Assembly (NCBI GenBank): GCA_965207735.1
Contig: OZ242296.1
Span: 4,256,001-4,320,000, forward strand
Direction of reading: 5' to 3'
Length of the DNA stretch: 64,000 nucleotides
From: Candidatus Versatilivorator sp.
GTDB lineage: Bacteria > Acidobacteriota > Terriglobia > Versatilivoradales > Versatilivoraceae
In this document: positions 4,891 through 21,616 of the stretch, in pieces
Numbering within the stretch: the first letter of the stretch is position 1
Layout: each line of letters starts with the position of its first letter
Notes under the pieces: generated by a model
What the model was told of the DNA's origin: nothing
Seen by the model: the letters and a program-made list of their open reading frames with translations, nothing else
The model's database searches: none
Made by a program: the position numbers and the translations under genes

Positions 4891-5339
4891 TTCCTCCCCC
4901 TCGCGAGCGGCGCGCCGGCGCACCGCGCGAGGCCGGGGGGACAGCGAGGCCGGCGCCGCACCGCGTAGTGCCGGGGAGCCAGCCTACCCAAGTAGAGTCG
5001 AGGACTGGCGCGTTGACTATAGGGTCCGCCCTGGCTGCTACCAACCGGAGCGACAGTTGTTGGGCGGGGTTCGCACCCGCCAGAAGAAGGCGCCTTTCCA
5101 CGGCGCACTGTAATACATTGGGGCTGGCGAGGGGCTCCGCCCCTTCGAACCCCCGACCGGGGAGAGCTCTCCCCTGGCCCCCCCATCACCCCCGCCGCTC
5201 CCGTCTCCCTCTCTCATGCCGGCGTGGCGTTCAATGGGGTCCTGCCACCCCCTGATTCCACGAACCTTGCCGGGCAGGCTGGACTTCGTACGGGTAACCG
5301 ATCCCTTCATGCATGCCCTCTTTGCCGGCCGTGCTGAAC

Positions 5340-5507
5340 CCGAATAGGGGCTTCAGGGGCTTCGAGGAATGGGGTAGAGTGCTCGGCGACGAAGTGATAG
5401 CCGCGGCGCTCATCGACCGGCTGCTGCACCACTGTCACATCGTCAATATCTGGGGCAACAGCTACCGGATGTGGGAGAATCAGGTCTGGCTCCGGGTCGC
5501 GAGGTGA
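5340..5507 (+). pseudogene. istB: IS21-family IstB ATPase C-terminal fragment
   Basis: NRGF..EEWGRVLGDEVIAAALIDRLLHHCHIVNIWGNSYRM is the IstB C-terminal signature. The rest of the gene is absent. Confidence 0.8.
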
Positions 5508-5552
5508 CCGTCGGCCCGTCGGCCTTGCGACGCGTTTCGGGCCGTACTCTGG

Positions 5553-5602
5553 CCGCTTGAAAATGGTGCGCCTTATCTGTCCAAGAAATCAGGGGCGGTA
5601 CA
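5553..5602 (+). mobile_element. Solo right end of an IS3-like element
   Basis: CCGCTTGA.AATGGTGCGCCTTATCTGTCCAAGAAATCAGGGGCGGTACA ends in CA and closely matches the reverse complement of 18735-18784. Confidence 0.6.
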
Positions 5603-5609
5603 GAAGAGC

Positions 5610-6878
5610 ATGCGATTAATGTCTATCGTTTCCACGATATCAAATGGAAGTAGACCCTGTGGAAGTAATGGGACCGGACCGCATCGAAGACGGAGAGTGA
5701 GTCTCCTGCCGCGCTCAGCCGTTCTTTGGCTCTTGATTGTGGCTGTTGCTCCCGTAACAGCGTACGTCGCAGCATCTCTTAAGCCCTCCAACGCTTGGGC
5801 TGAGCCAAAATCGGGTTGGCTTTACGTTCTGGATCCGAGAGTTGCGAGTGGGAAGTCCATGGTGTGGCTGGTAGATCCAAGAGAGGGGATCAAAGGAAGA
5901 CTGGAAGCCGGCTACGCTCCTTTCTTTGCTCTGTCTCCCGATGGGACCCGTCTCTATGTTTCGTCGCGGCCCCCCGGTCCTCCCGGCTCAGGTGTGTCTT
6001 CCGACAAGCTCTGGACAATCGATACTGCAACCGGGGATCTGCTTCAGCAAGTCAAGCTTTCCGATAGGGTTACTTACACGTTGCCCGCACCCGGGGGACT
6101 GGCGGTGTCGCCGGATGGCCGTTATGTCTATGTAGCCAAAAGCCGCACGATTCGTCCAGGTGTGCACGAGCAGGCAATACAAACCTTTGACACCATCAGG
6201 AAAAGATTCTTGTCGGAAGAGGCTGTGTTGCCACGTTGTGGTTTCCCCGAGATCATTCCGGTCTCCGGGACATGGCAGTTGGTCGTGATGTGCGGCTCCA
6301 GGGGAGCCCGTTGCATCAACCTGGCTTCCGATGGTTCTGTGAAGCAATCTCAGTTTGTGGAAGTGCCGATCAGCTTGTCCGCAGTTACGTCAGGCAGGAG
6401 GGTATTGAAGAGACCCCTCGCGCAGACCTCTCCTTCAGCCGATGCTCGGAAACTCGGACTGATTATGAACAACGGAGAGATATTTGAGGCGGAGATCGGA
6501 GACAGTCCGTTTCGGATCAATCCAACGCTGGCTCCTCCATTGCATCCGTCGCACACAGTACTTCAGGTCGGGGGCTCACGCCGTTCCTCCAACGGCGCCA
6601 AAGCATTCGTCAGCTGCGCCTCGAAGGAGCTTGTACACACGTCGCTCACAGCCGATGAGATCCACATCTATGACACCACAAACTCTTGGACCCGTGAGGC
6701 GATTATCAGGACCCCAGTTCCGTGTAGCGATCTAGTGTTGAGTGGCGATGGCCGGAATGTCTATGGCATCAGTCCGCAGACGAGGACTCTGCTGACAATA
6801 AATTTAGGCACCGGACAAGTGGAAACGAGCGTTGGAGGAATTGGAGTACAACCTAGGCTCCTGGCCATTGCACCATAA
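5610..6878 (+). CDS. Secreted or membrane-anchored beta-propeller protein, resembling amine dehydrogenase heavy chain/YncE
   Basis: Hydrophobic signal/anchor, repeated ALSPDG.RLYV and AVSPDGRYVYV blades, and a PRCG...MCG Cys pair. Start codon uncertain. Confidence 0.65.
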   Translation: MRLMSIVSTISNGSRPCGSNGTGPHRRRRVSLLPRSAVLWLLIVAVAPVTAYVAASLKPSNAWAEPKSGWLYVLDPRVASGKSMVWLVDPREGIKGRLEAGYAPFFALSPDGTRLYVSSRPPGPPGSGVSSDKLWTIDTATGDLLQQVKLSDRVTYTLPAPGGLAVSPDGRYVYVAKSRTIRPGVHEQAIQTFDTIRKRFLSEEAVLPRCGFPEIIPVSGTWQLVVMCGSRGARCINLASDGSVKQSQFVEVPISLSAVTSGRRVLKRPLAQTSPSADARKLGLIMNNGEIFEAEIGDSPFRINPTLAPPLHPSHTVLQVGGSRRSSNGAKAFVSCASKELVHTSLTADEIHIYDTTNSWTREAIIRTPVPCSDLVLSGDGRNVYGISPQTRTLLTINLGTGQVETSVGGIGVQPRLLAIAP

Positions 6879-7479: not shown

Positions 7480-7516
7480 CTCAAATCACTGTCCAAAGAA
7501 ATCGTGGGGCGGCGGA
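7480..7516 (+). repeat. Short third copy of the cassette-flanking repeat
   Basis: CTCAAATCACTGTCCAAAGAAATCGTGGGGCG is identical to the reverse complement of 8020-8051. Confidence 0.85.
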
Positions 7517-7623
7517 GGCCGTCACAATGACCGTCGATCCAGCACCCTAAGCCAAATGGCCATGATGGTCCAAGGTGCGGGTTGCAAGCGGTTGCAGTAT
7601 TGGGATGTGGTGGGGTAGGAGAT

Positions 7624-7908: not shown

Positions 7909-8014
7909 TGTTGTTTTTCCTTATGTTGGACGGGTTGCGACCGTCCGGTGTGCTACCAGCCCGGGTTCGGGGCCGATCCTTATTGCTGGCGTTTCCTGAC
8001 CAGCGGTTCATCAC

Positions 8015-8110
8015 TCCCTCGCCCCACGATTTCTTTGGACAGTGATTTGAGTGACTGTTTGAGAAGACACAGGAGAGAAGAATCACGCTATGTCGATGTC
8101 CAGAGGAAGG
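8015..8110 (-). repeat. Left copy of ~96-bp imperfect inverted repeat bounding the defence cassette
   Basis: Reverse complement aligns without gaps to 18638-18733 (81/96 identical by manual alignment). It overlaps the last codons and stop of the methyltransferase. Confidence 0.85.
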
Positions 8111-11100
8111 CCCGACTCGCCCTTTTCCGCTTGGAAGGCGGTGGGCCAACCGCCGTGCAATTCAATGATTTCGTCGGCCTCGATCATCCGGCGGCGGGTT
8201 TCAGCTAACGCTGCAACGATTTTGCTGTAGTGTGCGACATCGTCCGCTGAGAGTCGGCGGCCTTTGCGGTCGTTCAACCACTTTTCCGCTGGGCGGTATC
8301 CCCCGATGGCAAAAGTGTATGTTTTCGGATCCACACCGTTGAAGTACTGAGCGCGGTTAATCCAGACGCGTCCCGGGCGACTGCCCTGCGGCGGTGTGTA
8401 GCGGACCCTTTCCACTTGGTTGCTGCCAGGAACGGGGGGACTCGCGCTAGCGTCCGTGCTCTCGATTTCCATCAAGTGAAGGCCGACGAGACGGGCTCCG
8501 AGTTGGCTGAGGTCCGCGAACAGGGCACGGTTGCCTGGCAACGGCACACGGGGATAATCCGACTTCAGGAAATCGGCATAGCGGCGGCGGTATTTAGGGC
8601 TGTGGAGGACGGCGTAGATGTAGTTCAAGACATCCTCTGGTCCAAACCCTTCCTCAAGGTTGCCGGGACCGTTGGATTGGAATCCTAGACCGACAGCGGA
8701 ACCGAACGCATTAACAAACTCCCTTTTAAGATTTACACGCCGCGCAACAATGGCTGAGGGCTTTAGGGTGTGCTTCAGGTAAAGATAGACAGGCAAAAGA
8801 CAATTGCCCCCACGTCGAAAGAGATTGAAATCCGAGCAAAGGCTTGAAACAAAAACAACGTCCCATGCGCTCGATCCAATAACTTGCCCGGCTCGCCCAA
8901 TGCATAACCCCAAATTCTCCCCCACCAGCATCTGCTGCATGACTTCCGGCCTAGGCCTACATATAAATCCACGGGACCTTCCGGTGTAATGAGTGAAGCG
9001 CTTGTCAAAGGGCCGGTAGAGAACGGGAACGACGCGCCCATCCGCGCGCAGCACATCTTCCTGTGCCAGACGAACTTTCCAATCACGAGCATCCTTCCCC
9101 AGCCCGTAAAACGACCGTGCGTCCTCGGTTTCTCGGTCTGCAAAGTCTGTCACGACTTGTTCCATTTCCTCACGGGTCCAGCATATCGCTAGTTTGTCAC
9201 GGGCGGTGACGATTCCCACTGAATTGATCGGGAAGATGTCAATAAGCGACCAACCAGCTTCGTACTCCTCATGCAGTGCCTCGTCCCGTGGAACGAACAG
9301 ACGTAGCGGCGGTTTGGAGAGCAGTTCCTTCCACTCCATGCTCCCTACATCGCCGGTGGCAAGCCTATCGTACTTGCCAGCGCCAGCAGTCTGTTCACGC
9401 ACACCCCAAAGGTTGGCGTGTTTGTATACGGGTCGGGTCGGTGAAGGGCCACTAGCAGCGGGGCACGCGAATAGGCCAACGGCCACCCCCTGCTGGATGT
9501 CGAAGACATTTTCGTCGTTACCTCCATCGGGCGCGCGTTCTTTCTTTTTCGCGTTGCCGTGCAGGTCGAGAAGGTACCCGACTGAAAGCGTGGCGATCAG
9601 GCTGTCGCGCATGCCACGGAAGGTCGGATTGTCTAAATAGCTATGGTTGGTGATGAAGCCGATCACACCGAGGCTCGTCCGTTCGATTTGCCAATGAGCA
9701 AGGCGAATGAACTTCACATAGTCATCGTTCAGCCACTTGGGGTTACGTTCATTTAGCGGGCTACCATCAACTTCGAAGTAGTTTTCAACTCGTCCCTCAC
9801 CCGCACTGCCACGCAGCAGGTCGCGAATCCATTCACCCTTGTTTGCAGAATGCCCCGAATAGGGCGGATTGCCGATAACGACCGTAAACCTCTGCCAATT
9901 CTTGACCTTGTTGACAGCGCGGGCCTCATGTGCAAGTGCCGGCAGAAAGTCCAGTGTCATCTGCTTGGAGCCCGCCGGTTCCAGGGCGTTCGTCAAAAAG
10001 ATACGCGCCCGCTCGTCGCTTTGGAAGCGATAACCGGTCCCGTAGAGCTTAAGGCCGACCTTGAGGTGTGCGATAGCGTAAGGGGCCATTAGAAGTTCGT
10101 AGCCGTGCAGGCGTGGCAGAAGGTGTCTGCGAACATACTCGTTCCACAGCGGTGCGATTTGGCTATCACGGAGACCGTGTGCTCGCCACCTCTTGAGGAG
10201 CGTTCCGTGGATTACGTCGATGGCCTCGATTAGGAAGGTGCCGGTACCCGCAGCCGGGTCGAGAATCTGGACGAAATCTTGGTTGGGTGACAGGCCATCG
10301 GGAATCTTTAGATTCTTGTGGCGCTCCGCCATCTCACCCCAGGTCGTGGTATCCGCCAAGCCATCAGCAAGTCCAAACTCCTTGCGAAGCAACTTGTCTA
10401 CCGACCGAACGATGTATGTAACCACCGGACGCGGGGTGTAGAAAACACCACGCTGCATGCGCTTCTCCGCGTCGTACTCCTTTAGGAACCATTCGTAGAA
10501 GTGAATGACTGGATCTTCCCGCGGGTTCCGGTCACCGAAATCGCGGATGACCGCCTCCATGTTGGCGTTGTCGAGCAAGTCAACAACCTCAGCAACGCCC
10601 AGTTCGTCGAAATCGATTCCAGAGTTGTAATTCTTGCTCTTAGTGCCGCCGATATGAAGGAACGCTTCCATCAGCTCGCGGAGAAACGGATTGGTGCGCA
10701 TGTGCCCGGCGAAGTCGTCGGCCGTCTTCTTCTGCGGGTCGGCAATGCGAGCTGAGAGCAGGCCGTAAGTGATAGTCTGGGCATACATGTCGGAGAAACT
10801 TTCGGAATCTAGGTCATGCAGTAGCGTCTGTTGGAACGCCTTCACGAGTCTTGTGACGGGCCCGTCTGCGGTTTCGATATCAAGTACGGCGCGAATTCGG
10901 TTGCGGATGGCGCGGGCCAACCTGGCTAAGCGCACAGACAGATCACGCGATGTAGTGACCACTTCCTGGTGGCGAAGGGTAAAGGCAGAACGCCACTGTT
11001 CGCGCCAAGAGTTGGCATTGTCCTCATCCTCGGGCCAAGCAAGGCTCTCTGTCAGTTCACGGGCTACGTGATCCAGGTGCAGCACGGTATCGCGGTCGTC

Positions 11101-11559
11101 CCAACCGAGCACCTTAAGGGTAGGCAGCTCTCGGCTTCCGGCAGGGGCGGCGAAGTGGGCGAAGCTAATCTGGCGAACCTCGCCCTCCCCGTAGTTCGAG
11201 ATGAACAGCAGGTCTTCCGCAGCCCAAGCTTGCCGCTCTGCACTGTTGGCGGACGCACGTTTCTTGAGCGCCACCCGCCCCAGGATGCTGCGCAACGCCA
11301 CCACGGGAAGGCGCTTTGGCTCAAACTTCACGAAGAAGACACCCCAGGGCTGGTTTGTTGCCAACGGGCGTAGGCGCTTGATTTCTTGAATTTTGGCTGC
11401 GTTTCTTACGTCTATGCCGAGTTCTTCCGGCGTGTACTCGAAGGTCAGTTCCTCGAAGTCCTCGCTGTCGATTGGCCAATACATCTCGTCGCGTAGAAAC
11501 ACGATCAACTGGTCGAACCGCTGGATGGCCGCAAGCTCGGTGCGGTGGTCGGTAGGCAT
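8083..11559 (-). CDS. N6-adenine DNA methyltransferase with type ISP-like C-terminal specificity domain (type IIG/ISP-related)
   Basis: GVFYTPRPVV, ILDPAAGTGTF (SAM binding), GNPPY (catalytic). C-terminal GIVTARD, YRPFD, YIYAVLHSP.YR.RY..FLK.DYPRVP and IGGY...KWL.DRKGR. ATG at 11559 has a GGAG RBS. Confidence 0.9.
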   Translation of the reverse strand: MPTDHRTELAAIQRFDQLIVFLRDEMYWPIDSEDFEELTFEYTPEELGIDVRNAAKIQEIKRLRPLATNQPWGVFFVKFEPKRLPVVALRSILGRVALKKRASANSAERQAWAAEDLLFISNYGEGEVRQISFAHFAAPAGSRELPTLKVLGWDDRDTVLHLDHVARELTESLAWPEDEDNANSWREQWRSAFTLRHQEVVTTSRDLSVRLARLARAIRNRIRAVLDIETADGPVTRLVKAFQQTLLHDLDSESFSDMYAQTITYGLLSARIADPQKKTADDFAGHMRTNPFLRELMEAFLHIGGTKSKNYNSGIDFDELGVAEVVDLLDNANMEAVIRDFGDRNPREDPVIHFYEWFLKEYDAEKRMQRGVFYTPRPVVTYIVRSVDKLLRKEFGLADGLADTTTWGEMAERHKNLKIPDGLSPNQDFVQILDPAAGTGTFLIEAIDVIHGTLLKRWRAHGLRDSQIAPLWNEYVRRHLLPRLHGYELLMAPYAIAHLKVGLKLYGTGYRFQSDERARIFLTNALEPAGSKQMTLDFLPALAHEARAVNKVKNWQRFTVVIGNPPYSGHSANKGEWIRDLLRGSAGEGRVENYFEVDGSPLNERNPKWLNDDYVKFIRLAHWQIERTSLGVIGFITNHSYLDNPTFRGMRDSLIATLSVGYLLDLHGNAKKKERAPDGGNDENVFDIQQGVAVGLFACPAASGPSPTRPVYKHANLWGVREQTAGAGKYDRLATGDVGSMEWKELLSKPPLRLFVPRDEALHEEYEAGWSLIDIFPINSVGIVTARDKLAICWTREEMEQVVTDFADRETEDARSFYGLGKDARDWKVRLAQEDVLRADGRVVPVLYRPFDKRFTHYTGRSRGFICRPRPEVMQQMLVGENLGLCIGRAGQVIGSSAWDVVFVSSLCSDFNLFRRGGNCLLPVYLYLKHTLKPSAIVARRVNLKREFVNAFGSAVGLGFQSNGPGNLEEGFGPEDVLNYIYAVLHSPKYRRRYADFLKSDYPRVPLPGNRALFADLSQLGARLVGLHLMEIESTDASASPPVPGSNQVERVRYTPPQGSRPGRVWINRAQYFNGVDPKTYTFAIGGYRPAEKWLNDRKGRRLSADDVAHYSKIVAALAETRRRMIEADEIIELHGGWPTAFQAEKGESGLPLDIDIA

Positions 11560-11668
11560 GGGTTCAGTCTCCACTCCAAACGCGTTACGTCCTGCCATCA
11601 ACACTTAGACTGCCGCCACGTTGCAGGGCAATCTAAGCCCGAGGAATAGACAAATTCTGAATAGACGC

Positions 11669-12916
11669 TTAAAACAAATCCCTCAAATCGTCTTCGGACT
11701 CACTTCCGGATCCGCCGGAAGGTGGTTCCGTAGACTGGGGTAAATCGCCTCGCGTGATTGTCAACTGCCGCTCTTGTTTAAGTTTTTTGAAACGCTCAAT
11801 AAACGCGCACTGGCCGCTGGCACTGAAATATACCCACCGGGTAGCGCGGGTAATGCCGACAAACAGCCATCGCTCCAGCCGGTTCACGTGCAGAAATTTC
11901 GGGAACTTGTTCCTCCTCAACAGGGGCATCAATACCGTGTCAAAAGTCAATCCTTTGGCGCTCGGATACGCCATGACCTTTGGGCGCGAAGTGCTGAAGT
12001 CAATGGTTGGTGATGGGTTCGCCTTCACTCTTCCCGGTTGGGATGGAACCTCAACCTCCAAGCCGACTTCTTTCAGAGCATTGGCATAGCCATAGACGTG
12101 CCTTTTCGTTGGAAACAGGATGGCCACCCGGTCACCTTTGTCGATGCAGGTGCGAACCATCTCGATCATGTGGTGGCGTTCGTCCTCAAAGCTTTGGGCG
12201 ATGTACAGCAGCGGGCTTTGCCGCTCGCCTTTTTCGATTGGTGGATTTTGTGCGATGAAGGCTTGGCGTTCCGACTCGTCACGAATAAAAGCTGCCGCTA
12301 CGCGTACGATGTAGGGTGAGCAGCGATAGGCGTCGAGCAGCGTCAGGTTGCGTTTGTGTAATCCCAAGGTGGCCAGGACACTCGCCTCATCAACACCTTT
12401 TTCGTAGACTTGCTGCTTGTGATCCATGAAGACCGTGACATGCTTCGCCACGGCTTTGAGGATTTCGTATGCTCGAGTGTCGAGGTCCTGTCCTTCGTCG
12501 ATCATCGCAAAATCGTAGAGTCGGGTGGAGTGCTTCAGAGAGCGTACCTTTTCCCATACTGCTTGGCGGATTGCCTCGAAATCAGGGCCTTGTTTCGCCC
12601 GGGGAAGCCTTCTATCAATCCACGCTTCATGGAATCTTCGACACCAATCGTCGAAGGTAAGGACGCAGTCATCGGGGAGTCTGAGATCCTTGAGAGCTGT
12701 ACGGATATATGCCTTCAGGGTCTTGGTGAACACAAAAATCCGGTATCGTTCCGGCGGGACACGAAATTCATCAACTAGGTGCCTCGACCGGTGCAACAGG
12801 ACTATGGTCTTCCCGGATCCTGGCGAACCAAGCACCAGGCGATGTGCTCTTGGGTGCATCACGACCGCACGGACTTGCTCGACGGTCAGTTCATTGCGGG
12901 GGATGAGCCAACTCAT
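11669..12916 (-). CDS. UvrD/Rep-like superfamily 1 helicase (short, no fused nuclease)
   Basis: Walker A GSPGSGKT, Walker B IDEGQD, YRCS, SAKGLTFD, FVGITRA. Start overlaps the upstream stop (ATGA at 12913-12916). Confidence 0.85.
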   Translation of the reverse strand: MSWLIPRNELTVEQVRAVVMHPRAHRLVLGSPGSGKTIVLLHRSRHLVDEFRVPPERYRIFVFTKTLKAYIRTALKDLRLPDDCVLTFDDWCRRFHEAWIDRRLPRAKQGPDFEAIRQAVWEKVRSLKHSTRLYDFAMIDEGQDLDTRAYEILKAVAKHVTVFMDHKQQVYEKGVDEASVLATLGLHKRNLTLLDAYRCSPYIVRVAAAFIRDESERQAFIAQNPPIEKGERQSPLLYIAQSFEDERHHMIEMVRTCIDKGDRVAILFPTKRHVYGYANALKEVGLEVEVPSQPGRVKANPSPTIDFSTSRPKVMAYPSAKGLTFDTVLMPLLRRNKFPKFLHVNRLERWLFVGITRATRWVYFSASGQCAFIERFKKLKQERQLTITRGDLPQSTEPPSGGSGSESEDDLRDLF

Positions 12917-15312
12917 TGTCGCCTTACGATTTCAGCTCTGGTATCTGGCAAGTCACCGCTGGCAGAGATGGCCGAAGTCTTCTCCCGGCGCGAACGTTCC
13001 TCATTGGCCTCCTGCTCTCGTTCGCCGTCACGGGCAAGCCTGGCACCGGTCAGATACCAAACCAGTTCAAAGTCACTCAAAGTTGCCAGAGGCTCAAACA
13101 TACCGAAAGCTTTGTCAAGCAGGCTGTCGCGCAGTAATGGTTGCTTCAGCTTCTCAGCCAAAGTCGCTTTGAGAACCCAACAAGGTGGATCGGGATCGAT
13201 GGAGATGGCCTCGTCAATTACCCGTATTGCTTCATCCAACTTGCCCTGACCTCGCTTCGACAATGCAAGGTTGAAAAACGAACCGTTCCAGCGGCGCCAA
13301 ATGAGGGAGGCCTCTCGGTAAAATTTCTCTTCACGTTCGTAATCCCCCACCTCGCCACAGATGATGCCCATGCGGTGGAGAATTCCGCCATCCGGCCTGG
13401 GGCTGTTCAAACGGCTCAATAGATACAGCGCCCTTTCGTACCTACCCAGGTCTGCTTCCAGCAGGGCAATCTGCTTTACGGTTTCCCGTTGTTGCTGTCC
13501 TGTCATCTCTTGCTCTGTGCGCATTTGCTCTTCCAACTCGAGAATCCGGTTGCGCTGAGCGTTTGGATTCACCACGTTCGTCAAGGGGTTTGCGATCTCA
13601 CCATGAAACTCCCCCCGATCAAGATCATTCATCAGGGCAAGACGGAGATGGAGCACTTGGTTGCCGTCCATGCGGTAACGCAGTCTCAGTGGATCACCCT
13701 TGGAGACGATCGGTGGGATTTCCCAGAGCCGTTCCATCAGGACATTCTTGTGAGAATCTTGTAACTCCACACGAAGCTCCACCGTCTCGGTCAGGCCGGT
13801 TTTCGGAACGAACAGGTCGTTTTTCTGCGCCCAATCCTTGTTGGATGGATACGGAAGTTCGGTTCCAGATCTAATCAACTCCACTGCGCCACCTGAAGTC
13901 TGGATGTTGATGCTGTCGCTCGTGACAGGGCAGAAGATGCCCTGTTTGTACAGGGCCAGCGACAACGCCTGCCAAGCCGCACCTTGGGCGACGGCGGTCT
14001 GAGTCTGCTCCAAGTCATAGAAGCGCAAGAACCGTGCTTTTCTGAAGAAGCCCTCAACGGTCTCCCTAACCTGTGGGATGAGGCTGCTCCCGCCAACCAT
14101 CAGACAAAGGTCGACGTCGTGTGGTTCCAGCCTTGCGCGTTCCAACGCATCTTGCAATGGGGCAAAAATCGAACAGGTCCGAAAGTAGTCGGTCTCTCGG
14201 GGGTAGGGGAGATCTTTGTCGAAGAAGGGTTCCAGAACCTTCTCAAGCTGGACCGCGCTCAACGTGGGCGATTGCAGCCGTAGCGTACGATCTGGCAGAG
14301 AGCAGGAATAAAAATTAGGGATTTTCCGAATCAGGTTAGCACGTTCCTTATCGTAGAGATCAGATTTTTTTAGGCGGGTAATCTCTTGGCACAGGCCGAT
14401 CTTCAAGGATTCGGCAGCACCAAGCAGCGCAGGCATCACCCAGTTGGATTTCTGGCCGTAGTCCAAATCTCGGGCGTTCGATCCATTTTGCTCGATCAAT
14501 TGGGGAAGCAGCACCTCGGCGACAATTGCCCGGTCAATGTCGCCGCCGCCAAGTCTGAGGTAGCGGGAAACGGTAAGGGGTGCGATTCTAACCGGACGCC
14601 CGGGTTTTGCGGGCAGCAGTTGAAAGAGGGCAACGTCGCAGGTGCCGCCGCCAAAATCGAAAACCACAAACCGCTGAGGCGATGAGACCTCCGCAAAAGC
14701 TCGTTTGCCGTGAGCAACGAGGTAGGCGATGAAAGCGGCAATGGGCTCGTCCACCAAGCCGCCCTCAAGCAACTCAACGCCGGCGAGCGCCGCCGCCTGC
14801 ACAGTGTCCTGCCTCTGGGCAGCCTGGAAAGAGGCGGGCGTGGTGACCACCGTTGTTGTCACCGGTGTGGGGTCCTCGGTGAGTGCTGCGTCCATAAGGA
14901 ATTTCAGCAGGCATCCGCCGATCGTCTTGGCGGAATTAAGGCCGTCCGGTGCCTTATGGTAAGTCCGGCGGACGCCAATGTCGTTCTTGCACTCCCAGAA
15001 GATGTTTCGGTTCTGCTCCAGGTCACTGTCACGCAGGCGGGTGCGCAGCCTCTTCGCCCCCTCCCCAACAAGCCGTTTGCCGTCGTGTAGCGCCACCACC
15101 GACGGTACCAACGTGTGGATATAAGGGCCTTGCTGCGTGTCTTGTTCGACTTCGAGGCAACGGACCTCCGGCAGATTCGTGCCGCCGGGTTGCATGAGGA
15201 TTTCAGCGATGGCCGAATTGGTTGTGCCTAGGTCGATGCCGACGACCCGTACGGGCTCGTTCGGTGCTCGAACCCTGACATTTTCTGGTGTGACCAGTGC
15301 AAGAGTGTTCAT
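12913..15312 (-). CDS. Divergent Hsp70-family ATPase with C-terminal TPR repeats
   Basis: VGIDLGTTNS, TPASF..AQRQ, LVDEPIAA, VFDFGGGTCD, LGGGDID, MVGGSSLIPQV, AVAQGAA. TPR-like helices follow (LGRYERA, VGDYERE..FY, FNLALSK..QGKLDEAI...AISIDP). Confidence 0.9.
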   Translation of the reverse strand: MNTLALVTPENVRVRAPNEPVRVVGIDLGTTNSAIAEILMQPGGTNLPEVRCLEVEQDTQQGPYIHTLVPSVVALHDGKRLVGEGAKRLRTRLRDSDLEQNRNIFWECKNDIGVRRTYHKAPDGLNSAKTIGGCLLKFLMDAALTEDPTPVTTTVVTTPASFQAAQRQDTVQAAALAGVELLEGGLVDEPIAAFIAYLVAHGKRAFAEVSSPQRFVVFDFGGGTCDVALFQLLPAKPGRPVRIAPLTVSRYLRLGGGDIDRAIVAEVLLPQLIEQNGSNARDLDYGQKSNWVMPALLGAAESLKIGLCQEITRLKKSDLYDKERANLIRKIPNFYSCSLPDRTLRLQSPTLSAVQLEKVLEPFFDKDLPYPRETDYFRTCSIFAPLQDALERARLEPHDVDLCLMVGGSSLIPQVRETVEGFFRKARFLRFYDLEQTQTAVAQGAAWQALSLALYKQGIFCPVTSDSINIQTSGGAVELIRSGTELPYPSNKDWAQKNDLFVPKTGLTETVELRVELQDSHKNVLMERLWEIPPIVSKGDPLRLRYRMDGNQVLHLRLALMNDLDRGEFHGEIANPLTNVVNPNAQRNRILELEEQMRTEQEMTGQQQRETVKQIALLEADLGRYERALYLLSRLNSPRPDGGILHRMGIICGEVGDYEREEKFYREASLIWRRWNGSFFNLALSKRGQGKLDEAIRVIDEAISIDPDPPCWVLKATLAEKLKQPLLRDSLLDKAFGMFEPLATLSDFELVWYLTGARLARDGEREQEANEERSRREKTSAISASGDLPDTRAEIVRRQ

Positions 15313-15347
15313 GCTCCTGTCCCTGAATTAGTGATTGAGAACTCCGC

Positions 15348-18300
15348 TCAGCCGTTCAGTTCCATCCAACACTTCAGTGACGGCTTTATTCCTACCGGGG
15401 CATCGACCCGCCTGAGATAGGTGTTCTTGATATGTCGTTGGACCTTGGTTCGCGTTTCGATGAGAGTTTTCTCTTCCATAGCGCATTTGCGAGGGATCTT
15501 ATGCTTGGAGCGAATGCTTGCGACGATCTCTCCCGGCTCCTCGACGATTACGTTTCGATCAAGATCGTAGAGGTACCATCGTGTGGACCCTGCCTCCTCG
15601 CTAAAGGTACCGGTTTCTTTGTCGAGGGCTGGTAGCGCATAGCAGAAGAACACACCGCGCGCGCCTTTGGACAATCGCTCACGACCACTGAAAGTAGCGC
15701 CGGGCAGGCGATTGAGACGCGTTTCCAGATCAGGATCATCCCGCTGCAAGGCTTGGTATTCGAGATGCATGTTTTCAATCTCGGTACGCGTCCCCTCATA
15801 GGCGTGGTTGAATTCCCTAAGGGCATCGAAGTTGTCCTTGGGCGTGAGAAGCTTCCTGCCTTCGATTCCAAACGTCTTTGAGATTCGGAGGGTCTTCTGG
15901 GTAACCCTGGTGTAGAGTGTGAGGATGGCGTTCAGCTCTTCAGGAGGCAGAAAGTTCCAATAACTCACACTGCCACGAGAGGCGGCGACCTCCGGGTGTT
16001 CTGCGATCAGACGTTTTTCGACCTCCAGGTTCATGCGGCGGTCAACCCGTCCTATGCGCTGCATTAGCCGCACCGGGTTCCAGTGGATGTCGTAGTTGAT
16101 CATGCGAGAGGCGTCCTGAAGGTTCAGTCCTTCCGAAAGAACATCGGTTGAGATCAGAACGCGAATTTTCTTTAGGCCAGATTCTGCAAGCTCAGTCGAG
16201 GAGGACCCATTGTAGAACGGTGAAAATTGCTGGATTACCTCAGCTCGGTTGGCTTTGGTTGCACTGTCCAGTTGGGCTACTCCGTCGATTCCGCCATGGT
16301 CGAGTTGGCGTTTGAGATAACGAGCCGTGTCGGCGAACTCAGTGAAGATGAGCACCTTCTGGTCGTCCAATTCCTTGGTCTTGAGCAACCGGATGAGCTT
16401 TTGAAGCTTGTCGTCCTGCTTGGGCTTAAACCTCCGAGCCTCGCCGAGAAATTGAACGATCTGGTCAAGATCCAGATAGGTCTCCAATATCATCTCTTCG
16501 ACGTTGTACTGGTCACGGTCGAGCCGCTCGACGGCGTCGAGCATTTCCGGTGGCACGATGTCTTCGTCTTCGGGTTCGTCGTCATCCCCGCCCCAAAGGT
16601 CGAGTTGGCGTTGCTTTGTGTACCCCAAAATCTCTGCGTTTTGCGTCTCCCACCGAGTGTGTAGTCTTTTTTCGCCATCAGTCACGCTATGGACCTTAAT
16701 GAAGGCAAGCAGCTTTTTCAGGAGCCGGTTGCAGGATAGCTCGAAGGCCACGACGGAACTCTCGAAGCGCTTGAGAAAATTGGTCCGGATCAGACCCACA
16801 ACCTGCTGCTGCCGGTTCTGTTCGAAAGCGTCTATTTCTTCGTCTGGACCCTTGTACCAGTGAAGTGGATAGTACATGGGAAGCGTGAAGAGTGGATTCT
16901 CACGCTGGAACGCCTTCTGGAAGAGTTGCAGCAGCCGACCATAGGTCTTATGGATTGAGTAGGCAGCAACCTTTGGAGCTTTGCGTTCCGGAAAGGCGGC
17001 GGCCTGGCCAGTCTCGCGGATCTGGCTCTCGCGGGCGTAGGCGCGGCTACGCTGGACCACAAGTTGTCGAAAGATCGCGTCTGTCGAAAGTGTCTCATGA
17101 GCTTCGCTCATTTGCTCGGTAACGTCAGTCACGGTGTGCCCTATGCGCTGACGAAATGCCTGTTCCATCTGATTGACGTGGGCACGCAGGTTGTTGACAC
17201 CGAGGGTCCGGGCAAAATAGGCTTGGTCCCGCCGGGTGAATAGTTCAACCATGTGGCGGAAGTCGCTCAGCCGGTTGTTGATTGGGGTTGCGGTGAGCAT
17301 GAACAGGGTCTTGCGCCGCACCGAGTTGTCGAGAAGATCGTATAGGCGGTAATAGCGGGAGGGCTCCCTTCCGTTATCGCTACCGCGTGAGCCCGGATTC
17401 CTGAAGTGGTGGGCTTCGTCAATGATCACAACGTCGGCCAATTCGGCAATTCGCTGGAACCGAGCCGGGAAATCGCCCTTCCTGGATAAATCAGTATGAC
17501 TGAAGACGGCTAGGTTGCTGAAATCGGCGCGGCTCCCGACACCGCCGATGTGAGGCAGCCATTCCTTCAAGTGGGGTTCCCAAACTCCTTCTTTCGCAGC
17601 CTTGGGTGCAAACAGCGCTACTCGCCTGCCTTCGTGGAGCACCAAACGCTCTATGAGCATGAGCCCGACGAAGGTCTTGCCAAGACCCACGCCGTCGCAG
17701 AGGAATGCGCCACCGTGCTGACGAGCGATCTTCATGAGCCCCCAATACGCTTCCTGTTGGTAGCGGTCGAGGTGGTGGAACATTCTGGATTTCGTTTCAT
17801 CCCATTCAGTTGCGGTCAGTTCGTGGCCACGAAAGAACTCCTGCAGGGCCTTCGCGTACACTTCAAAGGGTGAATGAAGACGGATGTGCCGTTCGACCGT
17901 CTCTATGACGGCGTCGGTAACTTCTTTGGCTTCTTTCCAATGGGCCTCGAACCACTCTTGAAGTTGGGATACCTCACGAGCGCTTTGGATTTGCACGTTG
18001 AGCTCGATGTTCTCCGTGAGTCCCGGTTTGGTGAAGTTGCTGGAACCTACCAACGCCTGTGAACCGACGACCGCAAGCTTGGCATGGGTTATGGAGGTCT
18101 TCGCATGAAACTTGCCCTTGTCGTAGATCCGGCACTCGATTTGACCCCGCCGCAGACCCTCGAGAACAGCAGGGACGCCGTGCAAGAAGGGGTTGTCTTG
18201 CTTGTCGTACTCAATGCTCTGGTTAAGAATTTCTACAGCCCGCGAACGCACCGAGTCGAGTAGCGCCCTGCGTGTGCGGTGAGTTGTTTCAGCTCCCATT

Positions 18301-18491
18301 AGCACTCGGATCTTCTCAAGGCCTTGCCACTTTCCGTCCAATGCGAGCAATGAACCGATCTCGAAGAATCCCGTTGCCACGTCGAATGCTCTGGCGATAT
18401 CGGCCCACTCTTCGAGGTACCGTAGTCCGGTCCATCCGGAAATGCTGTTGTCAACGATGAACAGACTACGCCCTGCGGAGTTAGCATTCAT
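15348..18491 (-). CDS. Phospholipase D-like nuclease domain fused to an SNF2-family helicase
   Basis: FHAK...VGSSNFT (PLD), then DGVGLGKT, IDEAHHFRN, LTATPINN, KVLIFTEFADT, STDVLSEGLNLQ, WNPVRLMQRIGRVDR. ATG at 18491 has a GAGGA RBS. Confidence 0.9.
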   Translation of the reverse strand: MNANSAGRSLFIVDNSISGWTGLRYLEEWADIARAFDVATGFFEIGSLLALDGKWQGLEKIRVLMGAETTHRTRRALLDSVRSRAVEILNQSIEYDKQDNPFLHGVPAVLEGLRRGQIECRIYDKGKFHAKTSITHAKLAVVGSQALVGSSNFTKPGLTENIELNVQIQSAREVSQLQEWFEAHWKEAKEVTDAVIETVERHIRLHSPFEVYAKALQEFFRGHELTATEWDETKSRMFHHLDRYQQEAYWGLMKIARQHGGAFLCDGVGLGKTFVGLMLIERLVLHEGRRVALFAPKAAKEGVWEPHLKEWLPHIGGVGSRADFSNLAVFSHTDLSRKGDFPARFQRIAELADVVIIDEAHHFRNPGSRGSDNGREPSRYYRLYDLLDNSVRRKTLFMLTATPINNRLSDFRHMVELFTRRDQAYFARTLGVNNLRAHVNQMEQAFRQRIGHTVTDVTEQMSEAHETLSTDAIFRQLVVQRSRAYARESQIRETGQAAAFPERKAPKVAAYSIHKTYGRLLQLFQKAFQRENPLFTLPMYYPLHWYKGPDEEIDAFEQNRQQQVVGLIRTNFLKRFESSVVAFELSCNRLLKKLLAFIKVHSVTDGEKRLHTRWETQNAEILGYTKQRQLDLWGGDDDEPEDEDIVPPEMLDAVERLDRDQYNVEEMILETYLDLDQIVQFLGEARRFKPKQDDKLQKLIRLLKTKELDDQKVLIFTEFADTARYLKRQLDHGGIDGVAQLDSATKANRAEVIQQFSPFYNGSSSTELAESGLKKIRVLISTDVLSEGLNLQDASRMINYDIHWNPVRLMQRIGRVDRRMNLEVEKRLIAEHPEVAASRGSVSYWNFLPPEELNAILTLYTRVTQKTLRISKTFGIEGRKLLTPKDNFDALREFNHAYEGTRTEIENMHLEYQALQRDDPDLETRLNRLPGATFSGRERLSKGARGVFFCYALPALDKETGTFSEEAGSTRWYLYDLDRNVIVEEPGEIVASIRSKHKIPRKCAMEEKTLIETRTKVQRHIKNTYLRRVDAPVGIKPSLKCWMELNG

Positions 18492-18637
18492 ACGATCCTC
18501 TCGGTTCCGTCCCACGCAGCAGCTCCAACATCATCGTCAGCTTCGCCGGGCCGACCACCGTCCCTTCCTCCTACCCATGGACTTAAGGGCCGCCTCGACG
18601 CCCGTTGGGCGACCGGAGGTGCTCCTGAGGCTCCATT

Positions 18638-18733
18638 CCTTCTCTTGGACATGGACCAAGCGTGATCCTTCTCCCCTGTAGCTTCTCATACAGTCACTCG
18701 AATCACTGTCCAAAGAAACCGAGGGGCGGGGGA
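18638..18733 (+). repeat. Right copy of ~96-bp imperfect inverted repeat bounding the defence cassette
   Basis: Matches the reverse complement of 8015-8110. Core sequence CAGTCACTC.AATCACTGTCCAAAGAAA.CG.GGGGCG.GGGA. Confidence 0.85.
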
Positions 18734-18734
18734 C

Positions 18735-18865
18735 TGTACTGCCCCTGATATCGTGGACAGATAAGACGCACCATACTCAAGCGGTTAGTTTCAGCGCAAG
18801 GCGTTGTCTTGCCTGAACCGGAGGCTTTAATCCCAGCCGCTCAATCAGCCAGTGGTGGCTGTTAA
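18735..18865 (-). mobile_element. IS3-like remnant: transposase C-terminal tail plus right inverted repeat
   Basis: NSHHWLIERLGLKPPVQARQRLALKLTA* followed by a terminus reading TGTACTGCCCCTGATATCGTGGACAG on the + strand. Homologous to 5553-5602. Confidence 0.65.
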
Positions 18866-19788: not shown

Positions 19789-20964
19789 TCACGGTGCTTT
19801 TTCTTCGCCAGTAGGGCATGGATAATCAGGTAGCCTAGTATGCAGAACAATTTATGAGAACTGTGTGATAGTTTTGCTGTTTACAGTGAGCTTGTAGTGA
19901 CCCTTCAGTGGAGCGGTGCGAAAGCAGCCGTCAGGACTGCGGTAGTTCCACGCAATCCCGCATCCGACGTTCCCTCGTATCCGTGCCGATGGTGCTGGCC
20001 GCGTTCTGAAGCGGGAGTGGAGATGGAAGCGTTGAACACCCACGAAGTACCGGAGCGAAAGATCGAGGCGCTACGGGTGTCCATCTTCCGGCTGAGCGCC
20101 GCGAACCTGCCCATCAGCGAGAGTCCCGACCTCGAAACCGTCCTGCACGAGGCACAGAAACCCCTTCGCCACGGCGGCCCTCAACTTCCACCCCCGGGGG
20201 TCAAGGACGCTGCGTCGTATGGGTGGCCACCTTTCAGACGGGGGGTGGCTCACACAAGTGGCGCACCAGGTGACTCACGCTCTTGACCACTCCAGCGCTC
20301 CTCTCTCAGAGGGCGGAGCCGTCGCCGTTGTGGTCCAGGTTGTGCCCGGAAAACCTGCATTGGAAGCGGATCGGCACGGATTCCCCGAGTCCTCCGCGGT
20401 AAAGCGTAGTGCGGCACCGGCGCCGCGCGTCCCCGCCTCGCACGGCGCGTCGTGGCGCCGCACAGGAGGGGGAGGAAGTGGAGGGAGCGACCCCCTCATT
20501 TTTGCCGCTGGTGCGCCACGAGCGGGTGGAAAGGTGGCCAGGCCTCTGGCCACCCTTCCGCCCCTCGTTTTCGGGGTCGCTCCCTCCACAGTGATCCCTG
20601 GCGGGAAGGCCTCCAGCGCCTCGTCATCCAGCGGCACCTCAACGTCGGCTCCCGGCTGCGCGCCCTCGTCTATGAAGCCCTCGAAGAACAGAAGACCACA
20701 GATGGCCAGAGGCCGAGAAGGGCAAGGCTGGAGGATGCTCACAACCCGATATCTCCGATCCGAACCCACGGGCAGCCTACCACCCGGCTCGACGGTCTCG
20801 GAGGCAGAGTCTCGGGGGTTGCAACATCGTAAGACCTGTCCACCAACGTCCTGAATAGTCCAGTGGATTCCCGTTCAAATAGAGGGATATAATGAGGGGA
20901 TTACAACAGGGTTAACCATAGTAAGTCTATTATAATGAGCAGTTACAAGTTTTCTGTTGTAGTC

Positions 20965-21272
20965 GCCGCCTACGCGGCTCGACACCCATAGGCGACGTTT
21001 CCCATGGGCTGACGCCCACGGCTAAGTGCTGCCGCGGCTTCGCCGCTCTCAAGGAAGCCGGCTTAAGCAACAGATTCTCAGGTAAGTCCGACCCCTGCCC
21101 TGGTGTGCGGATCATACGAGAGTGAAACAATCAGAAATCGAAAATCCTTTCGTGACCTTGGTATCCCGTCGCGGTTAACCTCAACGCCTTAGTGCCCCTT
21201 CGTCGTCCTTCGTGGCCCTTCGTGGATAACTCTTTTTTCTTTTGTCTTTTTTCGGTTGTTTCAGGCAAGCCG
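20965..21272 (+). repeat. ~310-bp composite REP-like/MITE repeat (copy A)
   Basis: Contains the CCCATGGGCTGACGCCCACGGC hairpin and aligns along its length with the reverse complement of 25280-25585. Confidence 0.85.
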
Positions 21273-21616
21273 GGCCCCCGCCCTGGTGTGCGGATCATAC
21301 ATAGAGTGAAACAATCGGAAATCGATCAACCCTTCGCGAACTTGGTACCCCGTCGCGGCCAACCTCAGCGCCTTCGTGCCCCTTCGTGGAAATGTCTTTT
21401 TCTTTTGTCTTTTTTCGGTTGTTTCAGACAAGCCGGGCCCCCGCCCTGGTGTGCGGATCATACATAGAGTGAAACAATCAGAAATCGATCAACCCTTCGC
21501 GAACTTGGTACCCCGTCGCGGCCAACCTCAGCGCCTTAGTGGCCCTTCGTGGTCCTTCGTGCCCCTTCGTGGAAATGTCTTTTTCTTTTGTCTTTTTAGG
21601 TTGTTTCAGACAAGCC
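21097..21616 (+). repeat. Three tandem copies of a ~160-185-bp intergenic repeat unit
   Basis: GCCCTGGTGTGCGGATCATAC starts at 21097, 21280 and 21443. Each unit ends TGTTTCAG(A/G)CAAGCC. Confidence 0.9.

Follow-up and report, generated by a model that had tools for sequence, protein, structure and literature searches.

A mobile Hsp70-TPR and mini-helicase pair, a candidate defence module, embedded in a two-gene restriction-modification-like unit of Candidatus Versatilivorator

In MANTIS, among the closest described systems to the locus considered here, a methylase directs a dimeric nuclease, a PLD domain joined to an SF2 motor, to unmethylated sites (bioRxiv 10.64898/2026.09.23.753747). A gene found inside a methylation-based system is, according to Payne et al. 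(bioRxiv 10.1101/2024.01.29.577857), often a defence in its own right, the UvrD-like helicase DarH, which has no 2B domain, is required in DarHTG (PMC13069673), and HSP70-like NTPases are treated as switches in tripartite conflict proteins in a preprint whose available portion does not describe the gene pair reported below (10.64898/2026.10.19.760177). These and the other publications compared here are cited from portions of their text. We analysed a four-gene locus of Candidatus Versatilivorator sp. (Acidobacteriota) lying in a stretch of 64,000 nucleotides (assembly GCA_965207735.1, contig OZ242296.1, positions 4,256,001 to 4,320,000), hereafter the window. An earlier note made from the sequence alone had proposed that the four genes form one restriction-modification (RM)-like defence system with an Hsp70 subunit. 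Our analysis favours a composite locus, in which a mobile pair of genes, encoding an Hsp70 with TPRs (Hsp70-TPR) and a mini-helicase, separates the two genes that make up a likely ATP-driven RM unit and is itself most likely an anti-phage sensor-effector module; we give this reading a probability of roughly 0.55.

The minus strand carries four uninterrupted co-directional open reading frames (ORFs), taken from the window's ORF list with translations:

15348..18491, minus strand: PLD(HKD)-nuclease and SNF2 helicase fusion (PLD-SNF2), 1047 residues from ATG; Pfam PLDc_2, SNF2-rel and Helicase_C
12913..15312, minus strand: Hsp70-TPR, 799 residues; Pfam HSP70 and TPR, no PADLOC model
11669..12916, minus strand: minimal UvrD-like SF1 helicase, 415 residues; Pfam UvrD N- and C-terminal domains
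8083..11559, minus strand: type IIG/ISP-like N6-adenine methylase with a Type_ISP_C target-recognition domain (TRD), 1158 residues from ATG; Pfam N6-methylase and Type_ISP_C

The coordinates bear out the tight arrangement described in the earlier note, with 35 bp between PLD-SNF2 and Hsp70-TPR, an ATGA overlap between Hsp70-TPR and the helicase, and 109 bp between the helicase and the methylase. Its observation that the ATPase and methyltransferase motifs are kept is likewise correct: PLD-SNF2 has HxK and GSSN in the PLD domain (the canonical D of the PLD motif is missing across the whole PLD-SNF2 family) and Walker A and B, TATP and QRIGR in the SNF2 motor; Hsp70-TPR has DLGTT, DEP, DFGGGT and GGS; the helicase has the SF1 motifs GSGKT, DEGQ and FVGITRA; and the methylase has DPAAGTGTF and NPPY. 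The GC content of the four genes is 54-57% versus 62% for the genome. Pfam was run on the 18 ORFs of window positions 271-28806 and PADLOC on six ORFs; no NCBIfam defence model reaches its cut-off for any of the four proteins. A tRNA scan of the window found none, and a promoter and terminator scan gave matches at chance level. X1, an independent assembly of a public run, equals the stretch without differences, although its sample is possibly the source sample itself.

The four genes are not conserved together. A scan of GTDB genomes returned 97 relatives of Hsp70-TPR, and among the best 80 of these, whose loci were analysed, the window's gene order occurs once, in a congener (L001, probably the same genome as G413 and counted once). 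There PLD-SNF2, Hsp70, helicase and methylase are followed by a reverse transcriptase, and a DDE transposase interrupts the Hsp70 gene while both outer genes are whole. The four-gene order recurs in strain X3, from another study, with identities of about 90-95%. In congener G409, PLD-SNF2 and the methylase lie 4 nt apart with a DRT type I reverse transcriptase (59% identical to that of the L001 island) behind them, and Hsp70-TPR has no match anywhere in the genome. One and the same island is thus known in two states, carrying the insert in L001 and lacking it in G409. An evenly drawn sample of 401 host-phylum genomes includes seven with the close PLD-SNF2 family and ten with Hsp70-TPR, the window's genome being the only one with both; two of 14 congeners carry Hsp70-TPR. 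The close PLD/methylase family flanks the inner pair in 6 of the 80 loci. At L015 the pair is embedded a second time and independently, in the order Eco57I-type methylase, Hsp70, UvrD and PLD-SNF2, with a methylase and a PLD-SNF2 that are both distant from those of the window. Given an order found in one of 80 loci, we reject the single four-gene system, by the criterion of co-conservation that the earlier note itself had set. What stands of the earlier interpretation is that the outer genes are RM-like, that the setting is one of defence and that no named system has this Hsp70-TPR; the claim of one system with an Hsp70 subunit is not supported by the comparison of loci.

Hsp70-TPR and the mini-helicase are a paired unit, separable from PLD-SNF2 and the methylase. 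The helicase starts within 150 nt of the end of Hsp70-TPR in 63 of the 71 loci that have at least 500 nt downstream; eight have no helicase, and nine of the 80 could not be scored. Searching in reverse, from the helicase, through 4 of the 64 parts of a metagenome collection, we found a family-level helicase in 21 of 80 returned loci, with Hsp70-TPR upstream in all 17 that have upstream DNA (four do not). Across 56 loci, the pairwise identities of Hsp70-TPR correlate with those of the helicase (r 0.68, the pairs not being independent). An all-against-all phmmer comparison of 61 first-downstream and 71 first-upstream ORFs gave no conserved third gene, its largest clusters being three or four members of neighbouring systems, although a very fast-evolving gene could escape it. 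No family members were found in IMG/VR, in phage records or, with the helicase as query, in plasmids.

The Hsp70-TPR protein comprises a nucleotide-binding domain (NBD, residues about 20-455), a sandwich resembling the beta subdomain of the substrate-binding domain (SBD-beta, about 460-575) and a TPR solenoid (about 605-780) that replaces the lid. An AlphaFold2 model (pLDDT 89.7) has the NBD, the beta-sandwich and the helical repeats, and its best Foldseek matches are DnaK (E 6e-29). D27, T30, K109, E189, D219, T224 and G407-G408 are invariant wherever present in the family alignment; by its position K109 would be the catalytic lysine. Alignment to the host DnaK covers the DLGTT, EP, DFGGGT and GGS motifs. 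The protein has the NBD with catalytic residues and the SBD-beta of a canonical Hsp70, without the canonical helical lid, hydrophobic linker and J-domain partner: TPRs occupy the place of the lid, and no DnaJ is encoded among 287 scanned neighbour ORFs, the two DnaJ-domain genes of the genome lying elsewhere. The NCBIfam DnaK model scores it at 117 bits versus a cut-off of 648, and a separate canonical housekeeping DnaK is encoded in the same genome. Of 8000 candidates scored against the C-terminal 520 residues of Hsp70-TPR, 384 are homologues at E <= 1e-10, and almost all of these are about 800 residues long. The TPR residues N646, N681, K715 and W752 are kept with or without a helicase (64 versus 8 sequences).

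Several variants of this protein depart from the pair. Three of the eight helicase-less proteins (L075:6102-8531, L076:9164-11587 and L080:7429-9834) end in an acidic/aromatic tip of their own that resembles the helicase tail. Helicase-less variants are also fused to or near a receiver domain (L072:9083-12178, L075:4965-6008 and L076:5542-6615), with receiver-TPR genes in L075 and L076, and in P0036 a Ser/Thr kinase is fused N-terminally to Hsp70-TPR.

Aligned with PcrA and UvrD, the helicase lacks most of domain 1B and all of 2B. Its AlphaFold2 model (pLDDT 89.0) matches UvrD in Foldseek (E 5e-16), and PADLOC GajB-type models match it weakly, at the domain level (best E 3e-17). The C-terminal tail is disordered in the model (pLDDT below 50) and its consensus ending places L-x-D-L-L/F after acidic residues; an acidic stretch with a hydrophobic end is present in 53 of 55 helicases versus 13 of 304 other ORFs at the same loci, the sequences being related and not independent. 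With its conserved tip and flexible linker, the tail may be a docking peptide.

The outer genes support the RM-like reading of the earlier note. PLD-SNF2 matches the PADLOC model C3a139 HKD+Snf2 (E 2.5e-54), while the NCBIfam DrmD and PLD-antiphage models score it far under cut-off. The methylase carries Type_ISP_C (Pfam E 5e-81), matches PADLOC REase_MTase_IIG (E 1.7e-212) and is homologous to PDB 7lo5, LlaBIII and LlaGI (E 3e-29 to 4e-31), the LlaBIII match being limited to residues 430-1097, the methylase-TRD part. By eye, an alignment of eight sequences gave no clear PD-(D/E)xK motif in its N-terminus. Compared with L001, its TRD is 55% identical and its core 91%, and the TRD is 32-41% identical to those of eight other homologues; low identity in the TRD beside a conserved core is the expected mark of a diversifying specificity domain. 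Comparison with L001 indicates purifying selection on all four genes, with ratios of nonsynonymous to synonymous substitution (dN/dS) of 0.09-0.25 at dS 0.4-0.75; for PLD-SNF2 the ratio is 0.09. The two outer genes also stand together without the insert, 4-9 nt apart in L006, L008, L009 and L026 and directly adjoining in L016, L168, L169 and L173, and among six other genomes of the phylum with PLD-SNF2, three have a close methylase directly behind it, two a partial match further on and one none. From their domains, PLD-SNF2 and the methylase likely form a two-subunit, ATP-driven RM-like system resembling the nuclease/methylase core of MANTIS; the pair, which has no name, is predicted to be a split restriction unit of ISP/IIG-like type whose specificity can be switched.

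Two further features accompany this unit elsewhere. A DRT type I gene (Drt1a, E 1.4e-294) stands directly behind the methylase in two congeners (L193:13887-17051 and L001:18668-21559) and is missing in the window. Some methylase homologues end in a Peptidase_S24-like domain of about 160-200 residues (L193:13260-13883, L001 and L026); the window's methylase has lost it at an insertion sequence (IS) relic, and its final ten or so codons derive from that IS end.

The neighbourhoods of the pair are rich in defence genes. The 287 neighbour ORFs were scanned against Pfam, the loci were classed by hand, and neighbour classes were counted on the 56 loci of at least 10 kb, dropping 24 shorter ones (seven of them with a defence-type neighbour). 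A defence or conflict-type neighbour, of many kinds, occurs in 39 of the 56, as the defence context proposed in the earlier note would have it: a modification-based system (IIG/Eco57I, type I, II or III RM, BREX, DUF499/DUF1156 or Dnd) in 26 and another such gene (DruA, McrBC, CRISPR, WYL, HNH and others, some marginal) in 13. PLD/methylase (IIG) probes match 16 of the 80 module loci versus none of 59 loci of distant SF1 helicases, with probes drawn from module neighbours and a control of 504 kb versus 1111 kb. McrBC adjoins the pair at one of the 80 loci (L032). At L024:8779-10281 a CBASS-type cyclase lies downstream of the pair, with BREX genes upstream, and WYL-domain regulators stand next to or near the Hsp70-TPR gene in L057, L061, L062, L063, L075 and L076. 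The words Hsp70, DnaK and UvrD do not occur in the main text of the preprint on embedded defences, as far as it was available (bioRxiv 10.1101/2024.01.29.577857).

The pair is also mobile. Its Hsp70 tree (FastTree) mixes phyla, and an IS disrupts the locus at L001, L004 and L012. On this tree the associations with the close RM family are not clustered, requiring four changes for five rows (317 of 500 shuffles were as low; L001, broken, and L009, cut, were left out).

How the two units might work can be outlined from their domains and from MANTIS. In the outer unit, the methylase-TRD would mark host sites and recruit dimeric PLD-SNF2 to unmethylated ones, where the SNF2 motor would drive cleavage without an AAA+ loader; the insert would not be needed. 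In the inner unit, Hsp70-TPR may be a switch driven by ATP that keeps hold of the helicase, probably by the helicase's acidic-hydrophobic tail. The helicase could then be released or loaded when a phage protein engages the TPR or the substrate domain and, lacking 2B, it might unwind replicating nucleic acid or strip it. This would stop either phage replication or the cell, and the response could back up an adjoining nuclease system. We advance tentatively a more specific form of this proposal, in which the pair would be an immune switch gated by a chaperone, moving from one defence island to another and inserting itself into methylation-based operons, with the TPR lid of a catalytically intact Hsp70 clamping the acidic tail of the helicase until a phage protein displaces it; a repurposed Hsp70 would then serve as a pattern-recognition receptor or as a guard of restriction complexes.

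Several observations weigh against the pair as a defence of its own. It has neither a nuclease nor a known toxic domain, 17 of the 56 long loci have no defence-like neighbour, and methylase-type neighbours as frequent as those counted above would also suit an accessory of RM systems. The eight of 71 Hsp70-TPR genes without a helicase keep the same TPR residues, and the idea of a tail in a TPR groove gains no support there. Because the pair repeatedly lands beside methylase-based systems, it could be a facultative guard or accessory, little active alone, that monitors or assists an adjoining RM, BREX, BR or Dnd complex and fires, as PrrC does, when a phage inhibits that complex. This we regard as rather unlikely. 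The modification-based systems among the nearest genes, the probe matches, the two independent embeddings, an association with the close RM family that arose in at least three places on the Hsp70 tree, and the purifying selection on all four genes fit such a role, but the partner systems are unrelated to each other and 30 of the 56 long loci have no modification-based neighbour; moreover, with probes taken from module neighbours and a control of half as much DNA, the enrichment may reflect ordinary clustering in defence islands.

A role outside defence seems to us improbable; the pair would then be a mobile module for stress or repair whose specialised Hsp70 loads or recycles the helicase, and it would collect in defence islands as insertion sinks. 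Such a role would account for the 17 long loci, set among housekeeping genes, for a pair without an effector domain and for the four of 55 helicases that end in PF or PY, in a tail that we take to resemble an SSB-type acidic tip. Yet the very patchy spread with transfer across phyla, the repeated inactivation by IS and the embedding in operons are typical of defence genes. Least probable by far is an obligate four-gene RM-like system that requires Hsp70-TPR and UvrD as MANTIS requires MtsA and MtsB. The tight co-directional operon, its order in L001 and strain X3 and the finding that methylation in MANTIS can require a second ATPase (bioRxiv 10.64898/2026.09.23.753747) speak for it; against it, the one locus of the 80 with this order has a broken Hsp70 between intact outer genes, and the outer pair stands alone in G409 and elsewhere.

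Relics of mobile elements bracket the operon:

18638..18784, no strand assigned: IS left-end and right-end relics abutting at 18734, some copies being followed by rve-type transposase fragments; the left end faces the operon
8012..8110, no strand assigned: second IS left-end relic, facing the operon; a 99-nt inverted repeat, 84%, with 18638-18736

Homology to strain X3 extends from 8020 to 18734, exactly between the two inward-facing ends, a hint that the material they bracket may have moved as a unit. The relics are absent from L001 and therefore postdate the embedding; the lower one took the place of the optional S24-like domain of the methylase and of the downstream DRT gene seen in congeners. 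We considered the flanking inverted repeat as a dedicated recombination site and rejected it, as it is one of 25 dispersed IS-end relics of this family in the genome and is missing from L001. Further short relics of the family, presumably IS3-like by their end and transposase patterns, lie at 5553-5603 and 7480-7517. Decayed mobile elements around the genes, noted earlier, are also evident in an istB remnant, a C-terminal fragment at 5298-5510 that we take from its motif to resemble an IS21 IstB helper ATPase. An orphan ORF of 422 residues, beta-propeller-like, occupies 5610-6878 and starts 6 nt behind an IS-end relic. On the other side, the sequence at 20186-21430 is dispersed in many copies, at least six other long ones being present in this genome and many in congeners; it has internal repeats at 21078-21616.

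The novelty of the locus attaches to its inner pair, whose defence role is predicted. Among tested prokaryotic defence systems we found none with a catalytically intact Hsp70 at its base, and the literature gave no description of the Hsp70-TPR and helicase pair, although candidate tables such as PDC lists or large prediction sets could hold it. The statement in the earlier note that no named RM-like system contains an Hsp70 agrees with this and with the PADLOC search, which left Hsp70-TPR without any model. In the available portions of their texts, Hsp70 is absent as a term from PMC12839542, PMC12458937 and PMC2292703 and refers to eukaryotic proteins only in PMC8195603. If the pair protects, a chaperone ATPase would join the known immune switches (STAND, ABC and GHKL) and would point to protein-level sensing coupled to a helicase effector. 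Natural versions with the insert present (window and X3), broken (L001) and absent (G409) make independent and guard action directly distinguishable.

The one defence-linked Hsp70-like protein found in the literature, as far as the texts were available, is CnuD of type III CoCoNuT (PMC11090510). Like the pair, CnuD and CnuH bring together, in an operon predicted to act in defence, an SF1 helicase and an Hsp70-like NBD and SBD that carry helical repeats. However, the nucleotide motifs of CnuD are degenerate and its repeats HEAT-like, whereas those of the window's Hsp70 are invariant; CnuH is UPF1-like with inserts, whereas the helicase here is minimal and closest to UvrD/PcrA; and the McrBC core of CoCoNuT (an McrB-like GTPase and McrC), with its coiled coils and HEPN, has no counterpart here. 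UvrD-like helicases act in anti-phage defence in DarHTG, whose DarH also lacks 2B, and in Gabija (GajB), but the partner here is Hsp70-TPR and not a toxin-antitoxin pair or an OLD nuclease: no GajA OLD-family ATPase-TOPRIM stands beside the helicase, its neighbours being Hsp70-TPR and the methylase. Toxin-antitoxin-chaperone systems are alike by analogy only, in a dedicated chaperone that recognises a tail element in phage defence; their SecB-like chaperone, toxin and antitoxin are all absent here.

For the outer unit, class 1 DISARM and BREX are set apart by their missing hallmarks, as the earlier note had observed. No DrmA helicase or DrmB (DUF1998), and no PglZ or BrxC/D, was found among the 18 Pfam-scanned and six PADLOC-scanned ORFs; the DrmD, DrmC and PglX models reach 132 versus 610, 33 versus 133 and 17 versus 500 bits, and PLD is fused to SNF2 here. 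ARMADA (PMC12458937) and class 1 DISARM share with the locus an SNF2 helicase and an N6 methylase together with a UvrD-family helicase (ArmD) or PLD (DrmC), but the locus has no YprA-like ArmC or DrmA-DrmB, its helicase has no RelE-like domain, and those systems, in the portions seen, have no Hsp70. The methylase is a gamma-type N6 methylase with a C-terminal TRD (NPPY and motif I), as in type IIG RM, and its Type_ISP_C TRD is homologous to those of type ISP (LlaBIII, LlaGI) and type IIG/IIL (PDB 7lo5) enzymes. In type ISP, nuclease, SF2 motor, methylase and TRD form one polypeptide, an Mrr-SF2 fusion, whereas PLD-SNF2 is a separate gene here. MANTIS (Gao_RL, type 2 BR) is alike at the level of architecture: MtsC and MtsD comprise an N-terminal PLD fused to an SF2 motor and an N6-adenine methylase with a specificity-setting TRD, in a four-gene operon with a second ATPase. 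It differs in its DUF499 AAA+ protein (MtsA), DUF3780 and DUF1156, all absent from the window's operon, in a methylase that is IIG/ISP-type here, in a score for NF042964 of 133.8 versus a cut-off of 1100, and in that the window's extra genes are dispensable by genomics. Set beside these systems, the locus is best read as a composite: the embedded Hsp70-TPR and mini-helicase pair is a defence candidate without a name, and the two-gene RM-like unit around it is likewise unnamed.

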